This document shows, piece by piece, positions 1,165 to 52,885 of a DNA stretch of 64,000 bases. Under the pieces are notes generated by a model that did not search any database, was not told the DNA's origin, and saw only the letters and a program-made list of their open reading frames with translations. The stretch is taken from NCBI GenBank assembly GCA_958421325.1, contig CATZLO010000001.1:7373-71372 (forward strand). The letters are read 5' to 3'. This stretch comes from an uncultured Bacilli bacterium (GTDB lineage: Bacteria; Bacillota_I; Bacilli_A; RF39; UBA660). Position numbers and translations under genes: made by a program. The number at the start of each line of letters is the position of its first letter. Position 1 is the first letter of the stretch.

Positions 1165-3126
1165 ATGAAAGTTTTAAAAAAGTGTTTAAAAATATTTATA
1201 ATTCTTATAGGACTTTTCATTGTAGGAAATATTTGCGTTTATACTTATGCTAAGTTAAGTCCTAAGATTGAGATAAAGAATGCTAATAGTTTTATGTTAT
1301 TTGATAGTGATAATGAGGTTTTCTTTCAAGGAAGTGGTTCAAGAGAATGGATTGGTCTTGACGATATTTCTCCACACTTGATAGAAGCGACAATAAATAC
1401 TGAAGATAAAAATTTTTATAAACATATTGGATTTGACTACTTAAGAATATTAAAGGCGATGGTTGTTAATATAACTAGTGGTACTACTAGTCAAGGTGCT
1501 AGTACGATTACCCAACAGTATGCTAAAAACTTATTTTTAGATTTTGATAAGACGTGGAAAAGAAAATGGGATGAGATGTGGTATACGATAGAAATTGAGT
1601 CTCATTATAGTAAAGATGAAATACTAGAAGGTTATTTAAATACAATAAACTATGGTCATGGTAAATATGGAATAGAGACTGCTAGTAAATATTATTTTGG
1701 TAAGAGTGCTAAAGACTTAACTTTGGCAGAAGCGGCTATGCTTACGGGTATTCCTAAGTCACCTAGTAATTATTCTCCTTTTGTTAATTTAAAAAAAGCG
1801 ACACAAAGACAACAGGTAATTTTAAAGAAGATGTATGATGAGGGTATTATTAATAAGGCTGAATATAATAAGGCACTTGATCAAGAATTGAAGTTTGTAG
1901 GAGTTGAAGAAGAGGATGAACTTCAAAGTGTTATGTATTATCAAGATGCTGTTATAGAGGAGTTAAAAAGTTTAAAGGAAATACCTGAGTCTTTTCTTGA
2001 AACGGGAGGACTTAAAGTCTATACTAGTCTTGATATGGAGGCACAAAAACAGTTAGAAGAGACTGTTAAAAATACAATGCCAGATAGTGACTTGGAAACT
2101 GCTAGTGTTATGGTTAATCCTAATAATGGCAGAGTTATTGCTTTAGTTGGTGGAAAAGATTATAGTAAGTCGGAATTTAATAGAGCGACAGATGCTAAGA
2201 GACAAGTTGGTTCTACGATGAAAGCATTTTTATATTATGCTGCCTTAGAAAATGGTTTTACTGCTTCTACTACTTTTACTAGTGAAGAAACTACTTTTAC
2301 TTTTAATAACAATCAATCATATTCACCACAAAACTATAATGGTACTTATGGTAATAAACCTATTTCTATGGCTACAGCAATCGCTTATTCTGAAAATATT
2401 TATGCAGTTAAGACACATATGTTTTTAGGAGAAGATACTCTTGTTGATATTGCTAAAAGACTTGGCATTAATTCTAACCTTGATAAAGTTCCTTCCCTTG
2501 CCCTTGGTACTAGTGAGATAGGCATGTTAGAAATGGCTGGGGCATATTCTGCTTTTGCAAATGAAGGATATAAAATCAAACCTCATTTTATTACTAAAAT
2601 TGTAGATAAAGAAGGTACCGTTTTATATGAGGCATCAGAAGAAAAAGAACTTATTCTTAACTCTAGTTTAACTTTTATTTTAAATAATTTATTGACTGCT
2701 ACTTATGATTCTAACTTTATCGATTACAACTATCCTACTGCTGTCAATCTTGCTAGTAGAATGACTCATAAATATTCTTTAAAAAGTGGTACTACTAATA
2801 CTGATAACTGGTATATTGGTTATAACAAAGATATTGTAACAGCGGTTTGGTGTGGATATGATGATAGCCGTGATTTAAAAAGTAGTGAATATAAATATGC
2901 TCAGAATATTTGGCTTAATATGATGGAAGGCTATATGAAAGATAAAGATGATGAATGGTATAGTCAACCTGAAAATGTTGTAGGAGTTTTAGTTAATCCA
3001 ATTACTGGGAAACCTGCTAATGATAGTGATGAGAAAAAAATAATTGAATACTATATTAAAGGAACAGAACCGAGTGCAGATGACCCTGTTTTTGATGAGA
3101 TTAGTGGAAATACTAGTAGTAATTAG
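1165..3126 (+). CDS. class A penicillin-binding protein (GT51 transglycosylase + transpeptidase)
   Basis: N-terminal TM anchor; GT51 motifs (EDKNFYKHIGFD, TITQQYAKN); transpeptidase STMK/SxxK motif; 653 aa. Confidence 0.9.
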   Translation: MKVLKKCLKIFIILIGLFIVGNICVYTYAKLSPKIEIKNANSFMLFDSDNEVFFQGSGSREWIGLDDISPHLIEATINTEDKNFYKHIGFDYLRILKAMVVNITSGTTSQGASTITQQYAKNLFLDFDKTWKRKWDEMWYTIEIESHYSKDEILEGYLNTINYGHGKYGIETASKYYFGKSAKDLTLAEAAMLTGIPKSPSNYSPFVNLKKATQRQQVILKKMYDEGIINKAEYNKALDQELKFVGVEEEDELQSVMYYQDAVIEELKSLKEIPESFLETGGLKVYTSLDMEAQKQLEETVKNTMPDSDLETASVMVNPNNGRVIALVGGKDYSKSEFNRATDAKRQVGSTMKAFLYYAALENGFTASTTFTSEETTFTFNNNQSYSPQNYNGTYGNKPISMATAIAYSENIYAVKTHMFLGEDTLVDIAKRLGINSNLDKVPSLALGTSEIGMLEMAGAYSAFANEGYKIKPHFITKIVDKEGTVLYEASEEKELILNSSLTFILNNLLTATYDSNFIDYNYPTAVNLASRMTHKYSLKSGTTNTDNWYIGYNKDIVTAVWCGYDDSRDLKSSEYKYAQNIWLNMMEGYMKDKDDEWYSQPENVVGVLVNPITGKPANDSDEKKIIEYYIKGTEPSADDPVFDEISGNTSSN

Positions 3127-3170: not shown

Positions 3171-3524
3171 TTGATGAATAATAATTTTGATACTTATCCT
3201 AATCAAAGTACTGATCCACCTTATCAAAACTTTGATTATGATTATACACCTAATTTAAATAATATTCCTAATAATAATACTGTTCCTATAAGTGGAGATA
3301 TGGCTTATGCTGAAAATATTTTAGAATTAAATATAGGTAAAGAGGCAAGTTTTTATATGTCATATTCTGATTCGTTGGAATGGCGTGATAGAGTATTTAC
3401 AGGAACTATTGTCGCTGCTGGTAGGGACTATGCGGTTGTTAGAGATAGTAACAACCATAATTTCTTACTTTGGACAGTTTACCTTAATTATGTTGAGTTT
3501 AGAGAAGATATTATTTTAAGATAA
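3171..3524 (+). CDS. GerQ/YwdL-like spore-coat-protein-domain protein
   Basis: N/Q/Y/P-rich N-terminus; C-terminus ENILELNIGKEASFYMSY...VFTGTIVAAGRDYAVVRD...LLWTVYLNYVEF matches the conserved GerQ C-terminal domain. Confidence 0.5.
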   Translation: MMNNNFDTYPNQSTDPPYQNFDYDYTPNLNNIPNNNTVPISGDMAYAENILELNIGKEASFYMSYSDSLEWRDRVFTGTIVAAGRDYAVVRDSNNHNFLLWTVYLNYVEFREDIILR

Positions 3525-3578
3525 TTTACTCTTCTCTTTTTCTTTGTTATAATATGATTATAGAAGGAGAGACGTTTT

Positions 3579-16839: not shown

Positions 16840-17727
16840 TTATTTATCCAAATGCATAATTTCTAGTATTCTTGTTAAGTCATTAGCATTAGTGAAATTT
16901 ATTTCTAATTTATTTTCTTTAATTTTTACTTTAGTTCCTAATTTTTCACACAGATCGTTTGCTAGATAAGAATATTCGTTTGCTTGTTTTGTTGTTTTTC
17001 TTTTAGGTAATTCCTTTTTACGATGATATTCTTCCTTAGATATGGTTAATTCTTCTAATCTTCTGACACTTAAATTTTCATTTATTACTTTGTCTGCTAG
17101 AGTTATAGCTTGTTCTTTATCTTCTAATTTGCTTAGGACTCTAGCATGTCCCATGCTAATTTCGCCTTTAACAACTTCATCTTTTATTTCACTTGGTAAA
17201 GTTAACAGTCCTAACATATTTGTAATGTGACTTCTTGATTTTCCTACTTTTTTTGCTAATTCTTCCTGAGTTAAATTTAATCTTGTCTTTAAAGAGTTAT
17301 AGGCTTCTGCTTCTTCTAATGCACTTAAATTTTCTCTTTGCAAATTTTCAAGAAGAGCAATTTCCATCATTTCTTCGTCACTAAAATCTTTGATAATAGC
17401 AGGTATTGTTGTAAGTCCTGCTAATTTTGATGCTTTTACACGTCGCTCTCCTGCTATTATTTCATAACCTTTTATACTTTTTTTAGCAATTATTGGTTGA
17501 AAAACGCCATGTTCTTTAATGGAAGATGCTAATTCTTTTAAGCTTTCTTCATCAAAGTTTTTACGTGGCTGATAAGGATTACTTCTCAATTCATCTAAAT
17601 CTACGTTTACTATTTGTTCTTTTGGAGTCGTATTAATTATTTTTTCTTCCATTTCTGTCATATTTAGTGGTTCATTATTAAATAATTCTTCAAGTCCTCT
17701 ACCTAAAGCACGCCTTTTAGTTTCCAT
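16840..17727 (-). CDS. parB: chromosome partitioning protein ParB/Spo0J
   Basis: METKRRALGRGLEEL start, ParB box GERR, HTH; downstream of parA/soj as in B. subtilis. Confidence 0.9.
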   Translation of the reverse strand: METKRRALGRGLEELFNNEPLNMTEMEEKIINTTPKEQIVNVDLDELRSNPYQPRKNFDEESLKELASSIKEHGVFQPIIAKKSIKGYEIIAGERRVKASKLAGLTTIPAIIKDFSDEEMMEIALLENLQRENLSALEEAEAYNSLKTRLNLTQEELAKKVGKSRSHITNMLGLLTLPSEIKDEVVKGEISMGHARVLSKLEDKEQAITLADKVINENLSVRRLEELTISKEEYHRKKELPKRKTTKQANEYSYLANDLCEKLGTKVKIKENKLEINFTNANDLTRILEIMHLDK

Positions 17728-18505
17728 TTCTATCAATCACTTCCTTTGCTAAATTTAAATAAGCTTCTGAACCTTTGCTTTTAGGATCATATACTATTAT
17801 AGGTTCTCCGTGTGATGGTGCTTCTGTTAATCTTATTAATCTTGGTATAATAGTATTATATACTTTTTCTTTGAAAAACTTTCTTATATCATCTACTACT
17901 TCAAAACCAAGATTAGTTCTTGAATCTAACATTGTTAGAAGAACTCCTTCTATATCTAGATTAGGATTTAATTGTTTTTGAGCTAGTCTAATTGTGTTTA
18001 ATAATTGCATTATTCCTTCAAGAGCAAAAAATTCACACTGAACTGGAATAATAACTGAATCACTTGCTGTTAAAGCATTTGTTGTAATTAATCCTAATGA
18101 TGGTGGACAGTCTATTATTATGAAATCAAAGTTTTCATCTTCTAGTTCTTGTAAATGATATTTAAGTTGTGCTCCTTTTGCAAAACCAGGTTCACTTTGA
18201 CTTTTTTCAAGTAATTCTATATCAAGTCCTGCTAAATTTATTGTTGCAGGTAAGACATACAATTTTTTATATTTAGTTTTTAACATTGCATCTTTAGTAC
18301 TACATTTATTAGTTAAAACATCATATATACTTAGGTTTATATCTCCTTTGTTGATTCCCACACCAGTAGTTGTATTTCCTTGAGGATCTAAGTCTATTAA
18401 TAATACTTTTTTTCCAAGAAATGCTAGTGATGCAGAAAGGTTAATACTTGTAGTTGTCTTACCTACTCCACCTTTTTGGTTTACTAAAGAAATTACCTTT
18501 GCCAT
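17717..18505 (-). CDS. parA: chromosome partitioning ATPase ParA/Soj
   Basis: Deviant Walker A KGGVGKTT; 262 aa. Confidence 0.95.
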   Translation of the reverse strand: MAKVISLVNQKGGVGKTTTSINLSASLAFLGKKVLLIDLDPQGNTTTGVGINKGDINLSIYDVLTNKCSTKDAMLKTKYKKLYVLPATINLAGLDIELLEKSQSEPGFAKGAQLKYHLQELEDENFDFIIIDCPPSLGLITTNALTASDSVIIPVQCEFFALEGIMQLLNTIRLAQKQLNPNLDIEGVLLTMLDSRTNLGFEVVDDIRKFFKEKVYNTIIPRLIRLTEAPSHGEPIIVYDPKSKGSEAYLNLAKEVIDRNGN

Positions 18506-18602: not shown

Positions 18603-20042
18603 TTAGCCCTCATTATTTTCTTTTGATATTTTAATTGTGATTTGATAGTTATTAACAAGATCTACTTCATCAATATCTACTATGAAACCGCTTTCCTCAA
18701 TTTTCTTTAGAGTTTCTCTTACTAAATTTATAGATTCATTTAAACTATATTTTGGTTTTGTAATAGTTGATAATTCTTTATTGTTTTCAATATTATCTTG
18801 GAAAAGTGGATTATGCGCAAATGGATTATTAAAACTATTAATAGATTGCGAAGGATTTAAAGGTGCATTTGCTTGATCATTAACTCCTGATAGTAATTTG
18901 TCCATAGAAGTACTTGTAGAATCTTCTAATTTTCTTGTTTCATTTCCTAAACTGAAAGGATCAACATTATTAATTTGAGGTTCTGTTGGGGTTGGTGTAT
19001 TAAATATAGGTGCTTTGTTTTTATCATTACTATCAGTTTGTGGCTCATCTACAGGTGAGAAGAATTTAAATAATTGTTGAGGTTCCTCTTTTTGTTCTTC
19101 TTTAGAAGGTATTTTTAGAAATTCATCTATATTTGTTTTATTAGAATTAGTTTCATCTTCATTTATATCTTTAGCATTATACTTTATTGCATTAATATCA
19201 ATAGGTTTAGTAGCTGTGCTTTCTAGATTTTCAGTAATATTAGGAACATCATAATCGATAAATTTAGGGGGTGTTGAATAATCAATACCTACACTTTGAT
19301 TAAATTTATTTTCAGATGGTTGTTGTGGTTTTGTTGTATCATTAGAAAAATCTGTAGGTATTATTGATTCTATTGAACTGACATTTGTATTAACTGGTTG
19401 GGGATTCAAAAGTTTGTCAATATCTGTAGGATTTAGATTTTCTTTAGGTTTTATCTTTTCTTCTAATTCTTTAACTGTTAGTTTATTATCAATTACCTCT
19501 TTTAATAATTTTTTTTGGCTATCAACAGAAGGAGCATTCAATAAAGTCCTTGCATGTCGTTCTGATATTTGATCTTTTAATAGAGCATCTTGAACTTCAT
19601 CAGTTAAAGATAATAAACGTAGTTTGTTTGCAATGGCGCTTTGGCTTTTACCCATGGTTTTAGCTAATTCCTCTTGAGTCATTTGATCTAGTTCAAGAAT
19701 TTTTTGGTATGTTTTCGCTTCTTCTATTGGATTTAGATTCTTGCGTTGCAAATTTTCAAGGAGGGCTACCTTACTACTTTCTTTATCATCTAAGTTTCGA
19801 ATGATAGCTGGTATTGTTGTAAGTCCTGCCATAGCAGATGCTTTGTAACGTCTTTCTCCTGCTATTATTTCATATTTATTACCAATATTACGAACAATAA
19901 TTGGTTGAATTACACCATGTTCTTTAATAGAAACAGCTAGTTCTTTTAAGGCTCTTTCATCAAATACTTGTCTAGGTTGAAATCTATTTGGAATTATATC
20001 ATCTAAATGTAAATATACAACTTCATTATCTTTATTATCCAT
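18603..20042 (-). CDS. Noc-like ParB-family protein with ~200-aa low-complexity insertion
   Basis: N-terminal ParB/HTH domains and C-terminal SINLVRETLKKIEESGF...YQITIKISK resembling Noc; long N/P/T/S/Q-rich stretch between them; occupies noc position between rsmG and soj. Confidence 0.75.
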   Translation of the reverse strand: MDNKDNEVVYLHLDDIIPNRFQPRQVFDERALKELAVSIKEHGVIQPIIVRNIGNKYEIIAGERRYKASAMAGLTTIPAIIRNLDDKESSKVALLENLQRKNLNPIEEAKTYQKILELDQMTQEELAKTMGKSQSAIANKLRLLSLTDEVQDALLKDQISERHARTLLNAPSVDSQKKLLKEVIDNKLTVKELEEKIKPKENLNPTDIDKLLNPQPVNTNVSSIESIIPTDFSNDTTKPQQPSENKFNQSVGIDYSTPPKFIDYDVPNITENLESTATKPIDINAIKYNAKDINEDETNSNKTNIDEFLKIPSKEEQKEEPQQLFKFFSPVDEPQTDSNDKNKAPIFNTPTPTEPQINNVDPFSLGNETRKLEDSTSTSMDKLLSGVNDQANAPLNPSQSINSFNNPFAHNPLFQDNIENNKELSTITKPKYSLNESINLVRETLKKIEESGFIVDIDEVDLVNNYQITIKISKENNEG

Positions 20043-20107: not shown

Positions 20108-20755
20108 CTAGGCTTTATTTTTTATTTCTAAAATTGTTCTTATATCTTCTTTATTCGGTAAAGTAAAAATTTCCTTTTTATTAACATACCAATTATACTT
20201 TTTCATCATAGTTTTAGATTGTTCTAATTCTTCTTCAACATTTCCTTTCATAGCAAGAAAACTGCCGGTTTGATTTACTAAGGGTACGGTCCATGGCAAC
20301 AATTTAGGGAGGGATGCTACAGCTCTTGCAGTTACGATATCAAACTTTTTACCATCCCTTATCAAGTCCTCAGCACGTATGTGATAAGCTTTTATACCAG
20401 TTAGTTGCAATTTTTCTATTAACTTGTTAAGATAATTTACCCTTTTTAAAAGAGAATCTACTAAAGTTATTTCTAAGTTAGGATAAAATATTTTTAAAAT
20501 AAGTCCTGGAAAACCTGCTCCTGTTCCAATATCACAGAGGTTATTGGCTTTAGATAAATCATATACTTTAGATAATGTTAGACTATCATAGAAATGTTTT
20601 AAATAAACATCTTCTTTTTTTGTTATTCTTGTTAGGTTCATAGTTTTATTAGTTTCAATTAATGTATTATAAATAACTTCTAATTGTTCTAGTTCTTTAG
20701 TTGTTACTTTTAATCCTAAAGCTTCGACTGCTTTTGTAAATTCTTCATTATTCAT
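20108..20755 (-). CDS. rsmG: 16S rRNA (guanine527-N7)-methyltransferase RsmG
   Basis: GidB family SAM-binding motif DIGTGAGFPG. Confidence 0.9.
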   Translation of the reverse strand: MNNEEFTKAVEALGLKVTTKELEQLEVIYNTLIETNKTMNLTRITKKEDVYLKHFYDSLTLSKVYDLSKANNLCDIGTGAGFPGLILKIFYPNLEITLVDSLLKRVNYLNKLIEKLQLTGIKAYHIRAEDLIRDGKKFDIVTARAVASLPKLLPWTVPLVNQTGSFLAMKGNVEEELEQSKTMMKKYNWYVNKKEIFTLPNKEDIRTILEIKNKA

Positions 20756-28564: not shown

Positions 28565-28750
28565 TATTATATTCTCCACTATTTCCACATGATGTGGAAA
28601 ACAAATATTAACTTGTGAATAAAAAAATGTGGAAAATGTGGAAAACTTTGTTTTTTGTTGATATATATTAATTTTAGTTGTGGAGAAATTTGTCGAAAAT
28701 TTGTGGAAAAAGAAAAAAATTAAAATTACTATTTCTTTTTCCACAAATTT
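28565..28750. promoter_or_regulatory. oriC DnaA-box cluster upstream of dnaA
   Basis: At least 8 close matches to TTATCCACA/TGTGGATAA (TGTGGAAAA x4, TTTCCACAT, TTCTCCACT, TTGTGGAGAA, TTTTCCACAA) within about 190 bp. Confidence 0.75.
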
Positions 28751-28797
28751 AGAGTATTATAATGGTAATTTATGAAATTCAGGTGGGAGGTGATAGG

Positions 28798-30162
28798 GTG
28801 AATGTCGAAATTCTATGGCAAAATGTTCTAAAAGAAATAAAAGATGACCTTTCATCCCTAGCTTTCGACACTTGGTTTAGTGATGTTAAACTTATAGAAT
28901 TAGATAATGGGGTTGCAATTATTGAAGTACCTATGTCTATTCATAAAAAACATTTATCTGATAATTACTTTGACCTTATTAAAACAGCTTTAAATAAGGT
29001 AACAGGCACTAATTTTGATTTAGAATTTTTACTTTCTGATGAAATTAATCATATGAGGAAGGAAAAAGAAGATAGTATTAAAGAGGAAGGAGTACCTAAA
29101 TCATTTAAAAATCAATCTAATTTAAATTCAAAATATAATTTTGAAAATTTTATCGTAGGTAATAGTAATAAGTTTGCACAAGCGGCCGCTTTATCTGTTG
29201 CTGAAAACCCTGGTAAAATGTATAATCCTTTGTTTATCTATGGAAATAGTGGCTTAGGAAAAACGCATTTAATGCATGCTATAGGAAATTATATTATAGA
29301 AAATTCTAATAGAAGAGTTCTTTATGTTACAAGTGATCAATTTAGAGATGATTTTGTAGGGATTAATAAAAAAGATGAGAAGGGTACTAACTTTAGTTAT
29401 ATAGACTTCTTTAAAAATAAGTACAGAAATATCGATGTCTTAATAATAGATGATATTCAGTTTTTAGGGGGGGCGACTCAAACACAGCAGGAGTTCTTCC
29501 ATACCTTTACAAATCTATATAATGATTCTAAGCAAATAATTATTTCTTCAGATAGGTCTCCTAATGATTTAAAATTATTAGAAGAAAGACTTAGAACTAG
29601 ATTTTGTTGGGGCCTTACAGTTAATATTTATCCGCCAGATTTTGAACTTAGAAAAGAGATTCTTCGTAAAAAAATTATAGCAGGTAACTTTGAAACTGAA
29701 ATACCTGAAGATGTTATTGAATATATCGCTTCTAATATGGGTAGTGATGTTAGACAATTAGAAGGATCTATTACAAGACTCGTTGCTTATTCAACTATTA
29801 TGGGAGGGGCTATAATAGATATAAATCTTGCAATTGAGGCTTTGAAAGACTTTATTAGTAAGGGACTTAGTGAAAAGAATGATATTACAAGAATTCAAAA
29901 GATAGTAGCAGAATACTTTCAAATTTCTGTTGAAGATATAAGAAGTAAAAAAAGAAGTAGTAATATTGCTTTTCCAAGACAAATAGCGATGTATTTGTGT
30001 CGAAAACTAACGAGTGAATCTTTTCCAAAAATAGGTACAGAATTTGGTGGAAAGGATCATTCAACAGTTATGCATTCGGTTGAGAAAATTGAACAGGAAA
30101 TAAAAAATAATAATGATTTAGCAGGCATTATTAAAAAGTTAGAAGATGACTTAAAGCCATGA
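28798..30162 (+). CDS. dnaA: chromosomal replication initiator DnaA
   Basis: AAA+ Walker A GNSGLGKTHL, C-terminal DnaA-box binding domain; GTG start proposed at 28798 (MNVEILWQ...) after RBS GGTGGGAGGTGA; ORF track's longer frame begins at 28762. Confidence 0.95.
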   Translation: MNVEILWQNVLKEIKDDLSSLAFDTWFSDVKLIELDNGVAIIEVPMSIHKKHLSDNYFDLIKTALNKVTGTNFDLEFLLSDEINHMRKEKEDSIKEEGVPKSFKNQSNLNSKYNFENFIVGNSNKFAQAAALSVAENPGKMYNPLFIYGNSGLGKTHLMHAIGNYIIENSNRRVLYVTSDQFRDDFVGINKKDEKGTNFSYIDFFKNKYRNIDVLIIDDIQFLGGATQTQQEFFHTFTNLYNDSKQIIISSDRSPNDLKLLEERLRTRFCWGLTVNIYPPDFELRKEILRKKIIAGNFETEIPEDVIEYIASNMGSDVRQLEGSITRLVAYSTIMGGAIIDINLAIEALKDFISKGLSEKNDITRIQKIVAEYFQISVEDIRSKKRSSNIAFPRQIAMYLCRKLTSESFPKIGTEFGGKDHSTVMHSVEKIEQEIKNNNDLAGIIKKLEDDLKP

Positions 30163-30184
30163 TGTGTTGATAAGTTTTAGTTTT

Positions 30185-30295
30185 AAACTTTTTTTCCACA
30201 AGCTATGTTTAAGAAAAATATGCTAAAATATAAGGGAAAATGATAGTTTTCCACATTTTCCACTCTATAAATAAAAATATATATAAGAAAGAAGG
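30185..30295. promoter_or_regulatory. oriC downstream DnaA boxes and AT-rich unwinding element
   Basis: TTTTTCCACA, TTTTCCACA, TTTTCCACT followed by CTATAAATAAAAATATATATAAG. Confidence 0.6.
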
Positions 30296-35177: not shown

Positions 35178-35190
35178 GAGGTAAGTGGTT

Positions 35191-37635
35191 ATGGATAGAT
35201 TAGAACAAAATAATATAGTAAAAGAGGTTAAAGATTCTTTTCTTGATTATTCAATGAGTGTTATTACAGCAAGGGCAATTCCTGATTTAAGAGATGGTTT
35301 AAAGCCTGTTCATCGTAGAATTCTATATTCTATGTTTGAATCAGGTTATACTCCTGATAAGCCTCATAGAAAAAGTGCTAAGACTGTAGGTGAGGTTATG
35401 GGTAATTACCATCCTCATGGTGATAGTTCTATTTATGAAGCGATGGTTAGAATGGCTCAAGATTTTTCTTATAGATATATGTTAATTGATGGTCATGGTA
35501 ATTTTGGTAATATTGAAGGCTATGGAGCAGCAGCGATGCGTTATACTGAGTCAAGATTATCAAAAATTTCTCTTGAACTTTTAAGAAATATTAATAAAAA
35601 TACAGTTGATTTTGAACCAAATTTTGATGAGTCTTCTAAAGAACCTAAGGTTCTACCTTCAAGATTTCCTAATATTTTGGTTAATGGTACTACTGGTATT
35701 GCTGTTGGTATGGCTACTAATATTCCTCCTCATAATTTGAAAGAAGTAATAGATGGTTGCGTTGCTTATATTGATAATCCTGATATTGATGTTGATGGTT
35801 TAATGCAATATATTAAAGGTCCAGATTTTCCAACTGGTGCTTCAATACTTGGAAATAGTGGAATTAAAAAGGCTTATGAGACTGGTAGAGGAACTATTAC
35901 TATTAGAAGTAAAGCTCAAATAGAAGAGAAGAATGGTAGACAATATATAATTATTGATGAAGTTCCTTATGGTGTTAATACTTCTGAATTAAAAAATAAA
36001 GTTGCAGAACTTGTTCATAATAAGATAATAGAAGGTATTTCTGATTATCATTCTGATTTAAAGGATGGTATTAAGATAACTATTACGTTGAAGAAGGATG
36101 CAAATGCACAAGTTGTGTTAAATAAACTTTATAAGCATACACAATTTCAAACTAGTTATGGAATAATTTTCTTAATGCTAGACCAAGGTGTTCCTAAAAC
36201 ATTAGGTTTAAAGGATATTATTTCAAAATATATTGATTTCCAAAGAGAAATTATTATTAGAAGAACTAAATTTGATTTAGATAATGCTGAAAAACGAGTT
36301 CATATATTAGAAGGTTTAAAGATTGCATTAGATCATATTGATGAAGTAATTAAGTTAATTAGAAGTTCTAAATCTGATGAAGAGGCTAGAGGTGGCTTAA
36401 TGAGTAAGTTTGGATTAACAGAAATACAAGCAAATGCTATCTTAGAGATGAAACTTAGAAGATTAACTGGATTAGAAAGAGAAAAAATCGAAAATGAACT
36501 TAATGATTTACTAGATTTAATTGCAAAGTTAAAGGATATTTTAAGTAGTGATGCGAAGATTCTTAATGTTATAAAGACAGAACTTTTAGAGATTAAAGAT
36601 AAATATGGCGATGATAGAAGGACAAATATTGATATGACAGCAATTGAGTATATTGAAGATGAATCTTTGATTCCTGTTGAAGATGTTATTGTAACATTAA
36701 CTAATAAAGGTTATATAAAGAGATTAAGAGCAGATACTTATAAGAGTCAAAATCGTGGTGGAGTTGGAATTAAAGGTATGACAACTAACGAAGAGGATTT
36801 TGTAAAGCATTTAATTTTAATGAAAACACATGATTATATTTTATTTTTCTCTAATAAGGGCAGAGTATATAGGCTTAAAGGATATGAGATTCCAGAATAT
36901 AGTCGTCAATCTAAAGGACTACCTATTGTTAATTTATTATCTCTAGAGAGTAGTGAGAACATTAGTTCGATAGTTTGTTTAGATCCTTCTGTGGAAAACT
37001 ATAGATATTTACTTTTTGTTTCTAGAAATGGTCTTGTAAAACGTACAGAAATAAAGGAATTTGATAATATTCGTAGAAGTGGAAAAATTGCAATTGTACT
37101 GAAAGATAATGATGAGCTAATAGTTGTGGATAAAACTACTGGTGATGATGAAGTAATTATTGGTTCTAGCAACGGAAGAATGGTAAGATTTGTGGAAAAT
37201 GAAATACGTTCTATGGGTCGTGGTACTTCTGGAGTTAAAGGAATTGATCTTGATGGTAGTGTGGTTGTTGGTGCTAATGTTGTAACTAGAGATCAAGAAG
37301 TTTTAATTGTTACTGAGAATGGTTATGGTAAGAAAACAAATATAGATGAATATAGATTAACTCATAGAGGTAGTAAAGGTGTTAAAGCTTTAAATATGAC
37401 AGATAAAAATGGCTCTATGGTTTCTTTAAATTGTGTTAATGCAAATGAAAATACTAGAAAAGATGTAATGATTATTACGAATAGTGGTGTTGTTATGAGA
37501 ATGCCAATGGAACAAATATCTACTTTAAAAAGAGCAACGCAAGGAGTTAGGTTAATTCAGTTAAAAGATGAACAGAAGGTTGCAACCGTAACTGTTGTGG
37601 ATAAAGATGAAGAAGAAGATACTAATGAAGAGTAA
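35191..37635 (+). CDS. gyrA: DNA gyrase subunit A
   Basis: ATG at 35191 after AGGAGG; QRDR region with catalytic Tyr ([10 protein letters not shown]), C-terminal beta-pinwheel repeats. Confidence 0.97.
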
Positions 37636-37679
37636 CTTCTTTTTTTATAATATATTATTATAAAGTATTCTTTCTGTAG

Positions 37680-38330
37680 CTTTTTTAGCGATCATATATA
37701 AGGTTTCATGTGAAACATATAGAGAAAGAGAGTAAAACTATATAGAGAAGCATTAGAATTATTTCCCGGGAAATAATTTATAGAGGGTTGTTAAAGAAGT
37801 TTTTTTAGTGATTATATACAATGCTCTACGTGAAACATATAAAGAAAGAGAGGAAAACTATATAGAGAAGTATTAGAATTATTTCCCGGGAAATAATTTA
37901 TAGAGGATTGTTAAAGAAGTTTCTTTAGTGATTATATACAATGTTCCACGTGAAACATATAAAGAAAGGGAGGAAAACTATATGAAAAGCATTAGAATTA
38001 TTTCCCGGGAAATAATTTATAAAGAATTGCTTAAGTAGTTTTTTAGTAATTATATAAAAGGTTTCACGGAAACATATAGAGAAAGAGAGGAAAACTATAT
38101 AGAGAAGTATTAGAATTATTTCCCGGGAAATAATTTATAGAGGATTGTTAAAGAAGTTTCTTTAGTGATTATATACAATGTTCTACGTGAAACATATAAA
38201 GAAAGAGAGGAAAACTATATGAAAATCATTAGAATTATTTCCCGGGAAATAATTTATAAAGAATTGCTTAAGTAGTTTCTTTAGTGATTATATACAATGT
38301 TCCACGTGGAACATATAAAGAAAAAACTTG
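37680..38330. repeat. tandem array of about 5.5 copies of a ~120-bp unit, each with perfect 22-bp palindrome AATTATTTCCCGGGAAATAATT
   Basis: Units start near 37680, 37801, 37921, 38038, 38157, 38277 (partial); two alternating unit variants; each has the imperfect inverted repeat GTTTCA(c/t)GTGAAAC and a promoter-like TTGTTA-N17-ATTATA. Confidence 0.9.
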
Positions 38331-38356
38331 AAAAAATTAGATTTCTTTTGTATAAT
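38327..38356 (+). promoter_or_regulatory. consensus sigma70-type promoter TTGAAA-N17-TATAAT
   Basis: TTGAAA at 38327-38332, TATAAT at 38351-38356, immediately upstream of SRP RNA candidate. Confidence 0.55.
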
Positions 38357-38362
38357 TCTAAT

Positions 38363-38440
38363 GTGCAATAAATTATTTTGGAACCAGGTTAGGATGGAAA
38401 CGTAGCAGCCTTAACAATTTAATTTATGTGCACTTTTTTT
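38363..38440 (+). ncRNA. ffs: small (4.5S-type) signal recognition particle RNA with terminator
   Basis: CCAGGUUAGGAUGGAAACGUAGCAGCC matches SRP RNA domain IV consensus (E. coli CCAGGUCAGGUCCGGAAGGAAGCAGCC); 5'/3' ends GUGCAAUAAAUUA...UAAUUUAUGUGCAC pair; followed by T7 run; located just before tadA-dnaX as scr is in Bacillus. Confidence 0.6.
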
Positions 38441-38464
38441 ATACTATAAAAAGGAGTTTGATGT

Positions 38465-38923
38465 ATGAATGAATATAAATATATGTTATTGGCTATAGAA
38501 GAGGCAAAAAAAGCATATTATAAAGATGAAGTCCCAGTTGGTGCTGTTATTGTTCAAAATGGAGAGATAATTTCTTCTGCACATAATGCGAAAGAAGAAC
38601 ATCAATGTTCTCTTGAACATGCAGAACTAATTGCTATCAAAAATGCTTGCAAAAGGAATAATAACTGGAGGTTAACTGGTTCTGTAATATATATTACATT
38701 AGAACCATGTCCTATGTGTGCTAGTGCTATTAAACAATCTAGAATTAATAAAATTGTGTATTTATTAGATAATAATAATGAAAATTCACGAAGAATTGTT
38801 AATGATATTCTAAATTCGAAAGACGCTAATATGCCTGTGGAAAAAGTAAAATTGGATATTTCAAAGTTTGAAATTGATGATGTAGAAATGTTAAGTCATT
38901 TTTTTAAAAATAAACGCTATTGA
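38465..38923 (+). CDS. tadA: tRNA-specific adenosine deaminase
   Basis: HAE...PCPMC zinc-binding motifs of CDA superfamily, conserved position before dnaX. Confidence 0.85.
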   Translation: MNEYKYMLLAIEEAKKAYYKDEVPVGAVIVQNGEIISSAHNAKEEHQCSLEHAELIAIKNACKRNNNWRLTGSVIYITLEPCPMCASAIKQSRINKIVYLLDNNNENSRRIVNDILNSKDANMPVEKVKLDISKFEIDDVEMLSHFFKNKRY

Positions 38924-52649: not shown

Positions 52650-52885
52650 AAAATAGCGTTATTAAAAGTTGTGATGAAGAGTCTTATAAATTCTAGTTAT
52701 AGAGAGTTCTTGGTAGGTGAAAAAGAAATGAGTGATTTTATAAGATATGGCTTCTGAACTTTCATATTGATATGTAAGTATGAACGTGCTAAGCGTTAAT
52801 TAGAATGAGATACAAGGTTTATTGTAAAGAAAGGTGGTACCACGGGTTAGCTCGTCCTTTTGATATGATAAATCTTTTTATTTTG
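52650..52885 (+). promoter_or_regulatory. T-box riboswitch leader (Met-specific candidate) upstream of metG
   Basis: AGAGAG AG-box, GA motif, candidate specifier AUG(A) at about 52727-52730, T-box sequence AAGGTGGTACCACGG at 52820-52834, T-run before RBS. Confidence 0.55.

Follow-up and report, generated by a model that had tools for sequence, protein, structure and literature searches.

A tandem array of alternating parS-type and Noc-binding-type sites beside gyrA, a candidate compound centromere of uncultured gut Bacilli

What does a regular tandem repeat with two inverted repeats per unit do immediately downstream of gyrA, close to a chromosomal origin? The question is raised by an array between gyrA and the signal recognition particle (SRP) RNA gene in a 64,000-nucleotide stretch of contig CATZLO010000001.1 from an uncultured Bacilli bacterium, hereafter the window. 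An earlier note on this DNA had offered three readings of the array: a multimerised operator for a dimeric DNA-binding protein, a family of promoter-leader peptide modules, or a minisatellite. We found that one inverted repeat matches parS and the other matches the Noc-binding site (NBS). Both motifs are selectively conserved, they hold a conserved genomic position, and two proteins of the cognate types are encoded in the window. We therefore favor, at a probability of roughly 0.7, the reading in which the alternating parS and NBS make up a compound, centromere-like loading platform that lies about 8 kb from oriC.

Two dyads in a 120-bp repeat unit

Tandem Repeats Finder delimited the array to 37684..38323, with a period of 120 bp, 5.4 copies and 88% matches, in agreement with the 120-bp array that had been described at this place. 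The same program reports a 237-bp higher-order period over the array (90% matches), and a repeat search of the window found 98% identity between 37832-38044 and 38069-38281. By repeat search and unit alignment the units are 84-98% identical to one another. Alignment of all six recovered the two unit variants of the earlier description, but these follow one another as A A B A B and then a partial unit, such that they alternate only roughly. Whole 120-bp units are homologous and there are no unique spacers, and the array is thus, as had been stated, not CRISPR-like. Every full unit contains a single parS-like site and a single NBS, with distances between centers of 57-58 bp from parS to NBS and 62 bp from NBS to the next parS (array and binding sites are given without strand).

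The 22-bp palindrome that had been claimed for every unit, AATTATTTCCCGGGAAATAATT, is present as a perfect copy in all five full units, at 37757..37778, 37877..37898, 37996..38017, 38114..38135 and 38233..38254. In 5/5 of them it contains a perfect 16-bp NBS consensus, TATTTCCCGGGAAATA; the published consensus is TATTTCCC-GGGAAATA (PMC7383237). Across the window the 12-bp NBS core has 6 perfect matches against 0.05 expected, and these are distributed between the array and one stand-alone site. The latter, an identical 22-mer at 44964..44985, lies between the stop codon of an rsmI-like gene, which it overlaps, and pth, so the palindrome is not confined to the array. The same 22-mer stands just after rsmI in four relatives (L026, 7606-7627; L074, 7169-7190; L077, 7846-7867; L100, 27-48) whose RsmI proteins are 56-95% identical to that of the window. 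Because it recurs alone at this place in the window and in four relatives, the 22-bp NBS appears to be a functional unit in its own right. Isolated NBS in relatives occur upstream of gyrB, in dnaX and between rsmI and pth; across all loci fetched they are mostly inside dnaX and upstream of gyrB.

The second dyad, previously described as an imperfect inverted repeat, is the Firmicute parS, with consensus TGTTNCACGTGAAACA; the published form is TGTTTCAC-GTGAAACA (PMC7383237). Allowing up to 2 mismatches, there are 5 sites in the window against 0.02 expected, and all of them fall within the array, with 0, 1, 1, 2 and 2 mismatches. Unit 1 (GGTTTCATGTGAAACA, 37702..37717) and unit 2 (TGCTCTACGTGAAACA, 37822..37837) each carry a parS-like site with 2 mismatches. 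Unit 3 has a perfect match to the consensus (TGTTCCACGTGAAACA, 37942..37957), unit 5 has 1 mismatch (TGTTCTACGTGAAACA, 38179..38194), and the site of the partial sixth unit (TGTTCCACGTGGAACA, 38298..38313) is a perfect palindrome with 1 mismatch. A further, degenerate copy in unit 4 (GGTTTCACG-GAAACA, 38060..38074) has lost 1 nt at the dyad center and is probably non-functional. The suggestion of a multimerised operator therefore holds in that sites for dimeric proteins are multimerised. It does not hold in that there are two dyads and two ParB-family proteins, and the sites would be clamp-loading or centromere sites rather than transcriptional operators.

The two dyads could instead be parts of small transcription units, each with a promoter, a leader peptide or small RNA, and a hairpin. 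Promoter-like and ribosome-binding-site-like strings and two 18-codon open reading frames (ORFs) are indeed in the sequence, and the palindrome would fold as an RNA hairpin. The promoter proposed for each unit, TTGTTA-N17-ATTATA, nevertheless failed a sigma-70 consensus scan of 37500-38500, which found the SRP RNA promoter and nothing inside the array; promoter-like sites in this 1-kb region number 2, neither of them inside the array, against 6.3 in shuffled sequence. A scan of 37500-38500 likewise found no terminator-like sites. As had been noted, the mini-ORFs exist in two units, units 3 (37982-38038, MKSIRIISREIIYKELLK) and 5 (38219-38275, MKIIRIISREIIYKELLK). Their ATG arises from a 1-nt deletion and is absent from the other 3/5 units. 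The promoter-like, ribosome-binding-site-like and ORF strings are not conserved in the units of other species, whereas both dyads are. Inside the array no Rfam family was found at gathering thresholds or even at E<=1. We consider it hardly credible that the units are transcribed modules, and the promoter-leader peptide proposal falls on the same evidence.

Three further candidates were rejected. The mini-ORF is not a conserved peptide, being present in 2/5 units here and absent, or 3 codons long, in units of other species. A match to RF02638 scored 24 bits against a threshold of 219 bits and is noise. A DnaA-box scan found no boxes inside the array, which excludes a DnaA-box cluster or secondary origin.

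The array is flanked on the left by gyrA (35185..37635, plus strand; NCBIfam), a neighbor conserved across the clade. On the right is the SRP RNA gene (38357-38442, plus strand; Rfam, 49.4 bits), whose promoter at 38328-38356 matches the consensus at 11/12 positions, as expected from the consensus promoter that had been placed directly after the array. The tadA gene (38465-38923) follows.

Conservation of the sites and of their position

We scanned 185,579 species genomes with the pattern GTGAAACA-N(30-55)-TTTCCCGGGAAA and obtained at least 120 loci. Those listed are overwhelmingly from metagenome-assembled genomes (MAGs) of uncultured gut "Bacilli", Erysipelotrichaceae, "Mycoplasma" and "Tenericutes"; the few matches in Proteobacteria and Bacteroidota among them carry 0-1 further sites and were used as chance controls. 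In dozens of MAGs of uncultured gut Bacilli, arrays of parS and NBS are found at the same place between gyrA and tadA. Among the matches listed there are 93 clusters of 3 or more sites; 88 of them adjoin gyrA and/or tadA, a few lie between tadA and dnaX, and the GyrA proteins that accompany the clusters are 54-95% identical to that of the window. Strictly alternating arrays reach 25 sites (L097), 22 (L038) and 18 (L092), with 14 in L111 and L108 and 12 in L005, L037 and L043. The nearest named relative, Candidatus Onthousia excrementipullorum (GyrA 95%, TadA 79% identical), has an alternating array (L112) together with a long Noc-type protein (P0035).

Within these arrays it is the two motifs that are held constant. 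The consensus units of 22 arrays range from 70 to 127 bp in length, with NBS 100% and parS about 90% identical, and the spacers of distant arrays resemble one another no more than shuffled sequence does (0.43 vs 0.42 and 0.52 vs 0.51). Taking one site from each of 83 loci, the information content of parS is 1.3-2.0 bits over 16 bp (18 bp with one flanking base on each side) and that of NBS is 0.9-2.0 bits over about 24 bp; immediately outside both motifs it drops to 0.2-0.5 bits. The left half of parS and the outer bases of NBS were outside the search pattern, and their conservation is therefore independent evidence.

A sample drawn without reference to either motif came from 80 metagenome loci fetched by the GyrA C-terminus alone. 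All 34 complete gyrA-tadA spacers in this sample hold at least 3 parS (34/34), and 26/34 hold at least 1 NBS. Because every one of these spacers carries a parS cluster, we predict that the gyrA-downstream spacer is the centromere of the clade.

The same sample bears on an alternative in which the centromere consists of parS only, the NBS being a scattered Noc site that was caught in the amplified unit and kept by concerted evolution, with the two proteins uncoupled. The parS clusters of 34/34 spacers, 8 of which lack NBS and many of which have one, would fit this, as would the NBS that occur singly elsewhere near the origin and the tendency of tandem repeats to homogenize (units here being 84-98% identical). 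Arrays with unrelated spacers and units of 70-127 bp nonetheless all keep both motifs, which homogenization within an array cannot explain. In the window it is the NBS that are all perfect and the parS that have decayed, the opposite of what a passenger site would show, and the spacing classes described below hint at a geometric constraint between the sites. We regard this alternative as unlikely, though it is the strongest of those considered.

Spacing was compared between the array in the window and loci L003-L122. Centers of adjacent parS and NBS lie about 24, 35-37, 46-49, 56-58 or 68-70 bp apart, that is, in steps of ~11 bp. With one value per locus (n=55) the Rayleigh R is 0.56-0.60 for periods of 10.5-11.3 bp, related arrays not being independent; restricting the set to unique values (n=31) gives an R of about 0.4 and a p of about 0.005. 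The pattern is suggestive of helical phasing between the two proteins, and is not conclusive once related arrays are collapsed.

A different layout downstream of gyrA was seen in a very common human-gut lineage (L150-L197) whose GyrA is about 64% identical to that of the window over the full protein. Here one NBS is followed by 6-10 parS, whose spacings range from about 45 to 165 bp and lie mostly within 100-165 bp; isolated NBS also lie outside the gyrA-downstream spacer.

Copy number is the argument for a neutral minisatellite, which we consider together with the proposal that one ParB of dual specificity binds both dyads. The observation here is that L123, a human-gut contig of the same species with 98.9% identity over gyrB-gyrA, contains 2.4 units against 5.4 in the window, and that parS number varies from 6 to 10 among long contigs of lineage L150-L197. 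The variation in L150-L197 points to real differences in copy number; the difference between strains that the earlier note had proposed to look for is present in L123, but at a coverage of 2.5x, where assembly collapse is possible. Minisatellite is a suitable term for how the array evolves, since copy number differs between assemblies and between species, but it leaves unexplained why two invariant motifs of 16-24 bp persist in randomized spacers while GyrA identity falls to 54%. We give this pair of explanations very little weight, the case against dual specificity being made by the proteins themselves.

Two short-read contigs from Logan with identical TadA (L001, 1-186; L002, 1-71) stop at the right edge of the array, and the repeat thus breaks short-read assemblies right beside gyrA. 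The arrays also serve as markers of the origin region in uncultured Bacilli MAGs.

Two ParB-family proteins with distinct specificity residues

Both presumed binders are encoded in the window, about 18-21 kb from the array, in an operon with the order rsmG / noc-type / parA / parB, all on the minus strand: rsmG (20108-20755), a Noc-type ParB paralog of 479 amino acids (18603..20042; the presumed NBS binder), a parA/soj ATPase of 262 amino acids (17717..18505) and a canonical ParB/Spo0J of 298 amino acids (16840..17736; the presumed parS binder). The order in B. subtilis is rsmG(gidB)-noc-soj-spo0J; the operon in the window is B. subtilis-like, with the 479-residue gene at the noc position.

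Four residues set the preference for parS or NBS, namely R173, T179, A184 and G201 in ParB and Q, K, K and R in Noc, and NBS specificity through Q173 and R201 needs just one permissive lysine, at 179 or 184 (PMC7383237). In a HMMER alignment the 298-residue protein has R, M, T and G at these positions (GKS-R...N-M...L-T...M-G-HAR), the parS type. Among solved structures it is closest to B. subtilis Spo0J (6.9e-65). It carries the GERR and ENLQR motifs as well as the ParA-binding motif LGRGL, in the definition of PMC12704722, and the ParA gene is adjacent. The 479-residue paralog, aligned in the same manner, has Q, K, S and R (GKS-Q...N-K...L-S...E-R-HAR), which is the Noc type with Q173, K179 and R201. 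Its best solved relative is Geobacillus Noc (2e-62, with ParB structures at about 2e-49). The GERR and ENLQR CTP motifs are kept, and the LGRGL motif is absent from its sequence. Each dyad thus has a plausible dedicated binder encoded in the window, ParB for parS and the paralog for NBS. Two paralogs with such cleanly separated specificity residues would be hard to reconcile with one protein serving both dyads, and dual-specificity variants are known to bind parS and NBS more weakly (PMC7383237).

The paralog belongs to a family that is conserved in the clade and common in metagenomes, with homologs of 450-520 amino acids and 53-83% identity. In an alignment of 12 members the N-terminal domain and the DNA-binding domain hardly vary, and Q, K and R do not vary at all. 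For its function canonical Noc needs a conserved N-terminal amphipathic helix, by which it binds the membrane (PMC4331003; PMC8429893, a preprint). This helix was found in 0/12 aligned family members; the alignment of the 479-residue protein to Noc structures begins at chain residue 26, and its N-terminal hydrophobic moment is 0.1-0.3. In its middle is a linker of about 225 amino acids, low in complexity and rich in N, P and S, within which short motifs are invariant among the 12 members (GIDYSTPPKFIDY, FKFF, TSTSMD and FNNPFAxNPIF) and no domain was found in Pfam or NCBIfam. A separate match of 17 bits pairs the C-terminal 55 residues with positions 201-255 of the Noc model. An AlphaFold2 model from the 12-sequence alignment has low confidence (mean pLDDT 54); it predicts the linker as coil and the last ~45 residues as a fold of a helix and two strands.

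By its position and specificity the 479-residue protein is best called a Noc ortholog, one that lacks a defining feature of Noc, the membrane helix. Because that helix is missing and a motif-rich linker of 225 residues is present, classical nucleoid occlusion is probably not what it does here. The same two features suggest recruitment of protein partners rather than membrane crowding.

One segment of the linker, PQQLFKFFSPV, has a hydrophobic moment of 0.55, among the highest of the linker. Its FKFF presumably resembles FSRFF, the core of the membrane helix in B. subtilis Noc, and it could be a relocated membrane-binding or partner-binding motif.

The CTP motifs of the paralog also bear on whether NBS-bound Noc-type dimers serve as roadblocks or boundaries that bar or trap sliding ParB clamps, or the reverse. 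The effect would be to keep ParB within the array, or to shield the SRP RNA and gyrA transcription units, with no second spreading complex. DNA-bound proteins do block clamps of the ParB family, and on plasmid RK2 KorA captures KorB clamps. The layout could be read in the same way: the two types of site alternate at 57-62 bp, so that NBS stand on both sides of each parS, and the parS of the partial sixth unit lies 15 bp upstream of the -35 box of the SRP RNA promoter. Yet the paralog keeps the GERR/ENLQR motifs, as would be expected if it were a clamp that moves off the site where it loads, and stand-alone NBS far from any parS are conserved. A boundary role is in our estimation improbable, less so than neutrality or transcription units and more so than a parS-only centromere.

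A candidate two-clamp loading platform at the origin

How a compound loading platform would work can be outlined from the established biochemistry of ParB and Noc. ParB dimers would nucleate on parS, bind CTP, close into clamps and slide out, and the sliding ParB would build the partition complex at the origin, which in turn would engage ParA and presumably SMC. The Noc-type paralog, also as dimers, would nucleate on the interleaved NBS and load likewise, such that both clamp populations would be concentrated on the same origin-proximal DNA as one mixed nucleoprotein domain. Tandem amplification would multiply the loading sites, as in the iterated centromeres of plasmids. More speculatively, the paralog would be a second adaptor bound at the origin, one that links the origin domain with division, with replication control or with the envelope. 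Since it has no N-terminal membrane helix and has a long linker with conserved short motifs, we think this adaptor role more likely for it than that of a chromosome-wide nucleoid-occlusion factor.

Several points weigh against the loading platform. All assignments of protein to DNA are by homology, and the largest comparative set was chosen by the composite motif, a choice that the GyrA-anchored sample offsets only partly. In that sample many lineages are parS-rich with one NBS or none, so interleaving is not obligatory, and strict alternation of parS and NBS is one widespread sub-type. The co-occurrence of array and Noc-type gene was checked directly in the window and at the species level in one more case. 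In the window itself only 3 of 6 parS copies are within 1 mismatch of the consensus and one has the central deletion; with so few near-perfect sites, the ParB-loading capacity of this array may be modest. As for the paralog, it scores 294.4 bits (residues 7-201), narrowly under the cut-off of 315 of NCBIfam TIGR04285, on account of its 225-residue insert, and the N-terminal amphipathic helix is absent even from the maximal ORF, which starts MDNKDNEVVYLHLDDIIPNRFQPR. Given the score below the cut-off and the lack of the helix, its activity is not simply transferable from B. subtilis Noc.

Each half of the system has known counterparts. Iterated centromeres of plasmids, such as F sopC (12 x 43 bp), R1 parC and pSM19035 parS, vary in copy number and, like the array, consist of tandem direct repeats that each contain a dyad for the partition protein. 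These plasmid centromeres have one type of site and one binder, whereas the array is chromosomal and has two types of site and two paralogous CTPase clamps; the architecture matches, and we regard the resemblance as analogy, not membership. Chromosomal parS clusters of B. subtilis, Streptomyces, Listeria, Pseudomonas and others share with the array the 16-bp consensus, the origin-proximal position, the multiple copies, and a cognate, LGRGL-bearing ParB and a ParA encoded nearby. Known chromosomal parS are, however, dispersed over tens of kb and often inside genes, whereas here they form head-to-tail repeats of 70-127 bp in one gyrA-tadA spacer and are interleaved with the sites of a second protein. 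The reason for parS clustering has been called an open question in a review, according to which Noc function was created when the amphipathic helix was grafted on (PMC7333895).

With the Noc-NBS system of B. subtilis and S. aureus the locus shares the 16-bp NBS consensus and stand-alone NBS, and the paralog shares the operon position, Q173/K179/R201, Noc structures as closest relatives and a Noc-like C-terminal domain. Canonical NBS are scattered around the chromosome, whereas here they are arrayed with parS; and where canonical Noc has its N-terminal helix, the paralog family has instead the ~225-residue linker with invariant motifs. Action of a Noc-type protein at the origin would fit earlier results: in B. 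subtilis, it takes Spo0J together with Noc to keep Z rings from mid-cell while the origins there are unreplicated (PMC6852036), and in S. aureus, Noc restrains replication initiation and has small chromatin immunoprecipitation (ChIP) peaks around dnaA (PMC5540599). The cooperation of Spo0J and Noc in those species is genetic and involves no shared cis element, whereas here both types of site are interleaved in one array. Searches of the full-text literature turned up no report of natural tandem arrays that interleave parS and NBS, and none of a helix-less Noc with a long linker. The two motifs and the two protein families are themselves well known.

ParB-parS and Noc-NBS are the textbook case of how, after duplication, a DNA-binding protein took on a different site and a different job, and the two systems are regarded as separate both in space and in function. 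If the loading platform is real, two clamp systems can form one origin complex, evolution can separate NBS specificity from membrane targeting, and parS clustering can come from tandem amplification of a composite unit. The array would also be a ready natural substrate for in vitro work on two CTP-dependent clamps sharing DNA. We can extend this, tentatively and at somewhat worse than even odds, to a large clade of gut Bacilli with reduced genomes. In these the Noc ortholog would be a second centromere protein and not a nucleoid-occlusion factor: NBS-specific and helix-less, co-loaded with ParB from a phase-constrained alternating array into a two-clamp origin complex, with the motifs of its linker recruiting a division, replication initiation or envelope machine. 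Were this so, the array would be either a preserved intermediate of the duplication from ParB to Noc or a new departure from it, in which the paralog changed its DNA specificity while staying at the centromere.

The origin to which these readings refer is a bipartite oriC at 28593..30255 (no strand assigned), with DnaA-box clusters at 28593-28745 and 30165-30255 flanking dnaA (28762-30162). The GC skew switches sign at about 28 kb, and the array lies ~7.4-9 kb to the right of oriC. The DnaA boxes are mostly TTTTCCACA, and repeats of 9-12 bp flagged by Tandem Repeats Finder at 28624-28711 are these boxes.

Elsewhere in the window, an IS110-family transposase gene (DEDD_Tnp_IS110 and Transposase_20; 45693-46952, minus strand) is inserted just downstream of pth; apart from this insertion the origin-proximal string of genes is conserved. 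The conspecific contig L001 has a BofA-family gene (3354-3551) between recR and holB, a hint that this small-genome lineage has a heritage related to sporulation. A T-box leader lies at 52662-52862 (plus strand; Rfam RF00230, 104 bits), and a perfect 20-bp tandem repeat, TTTTTGGTGTGAATGATAGT in 2.3 copies, is found at 1085-1131, just upstream of an ORF of 653 amino acids (1165-3126).

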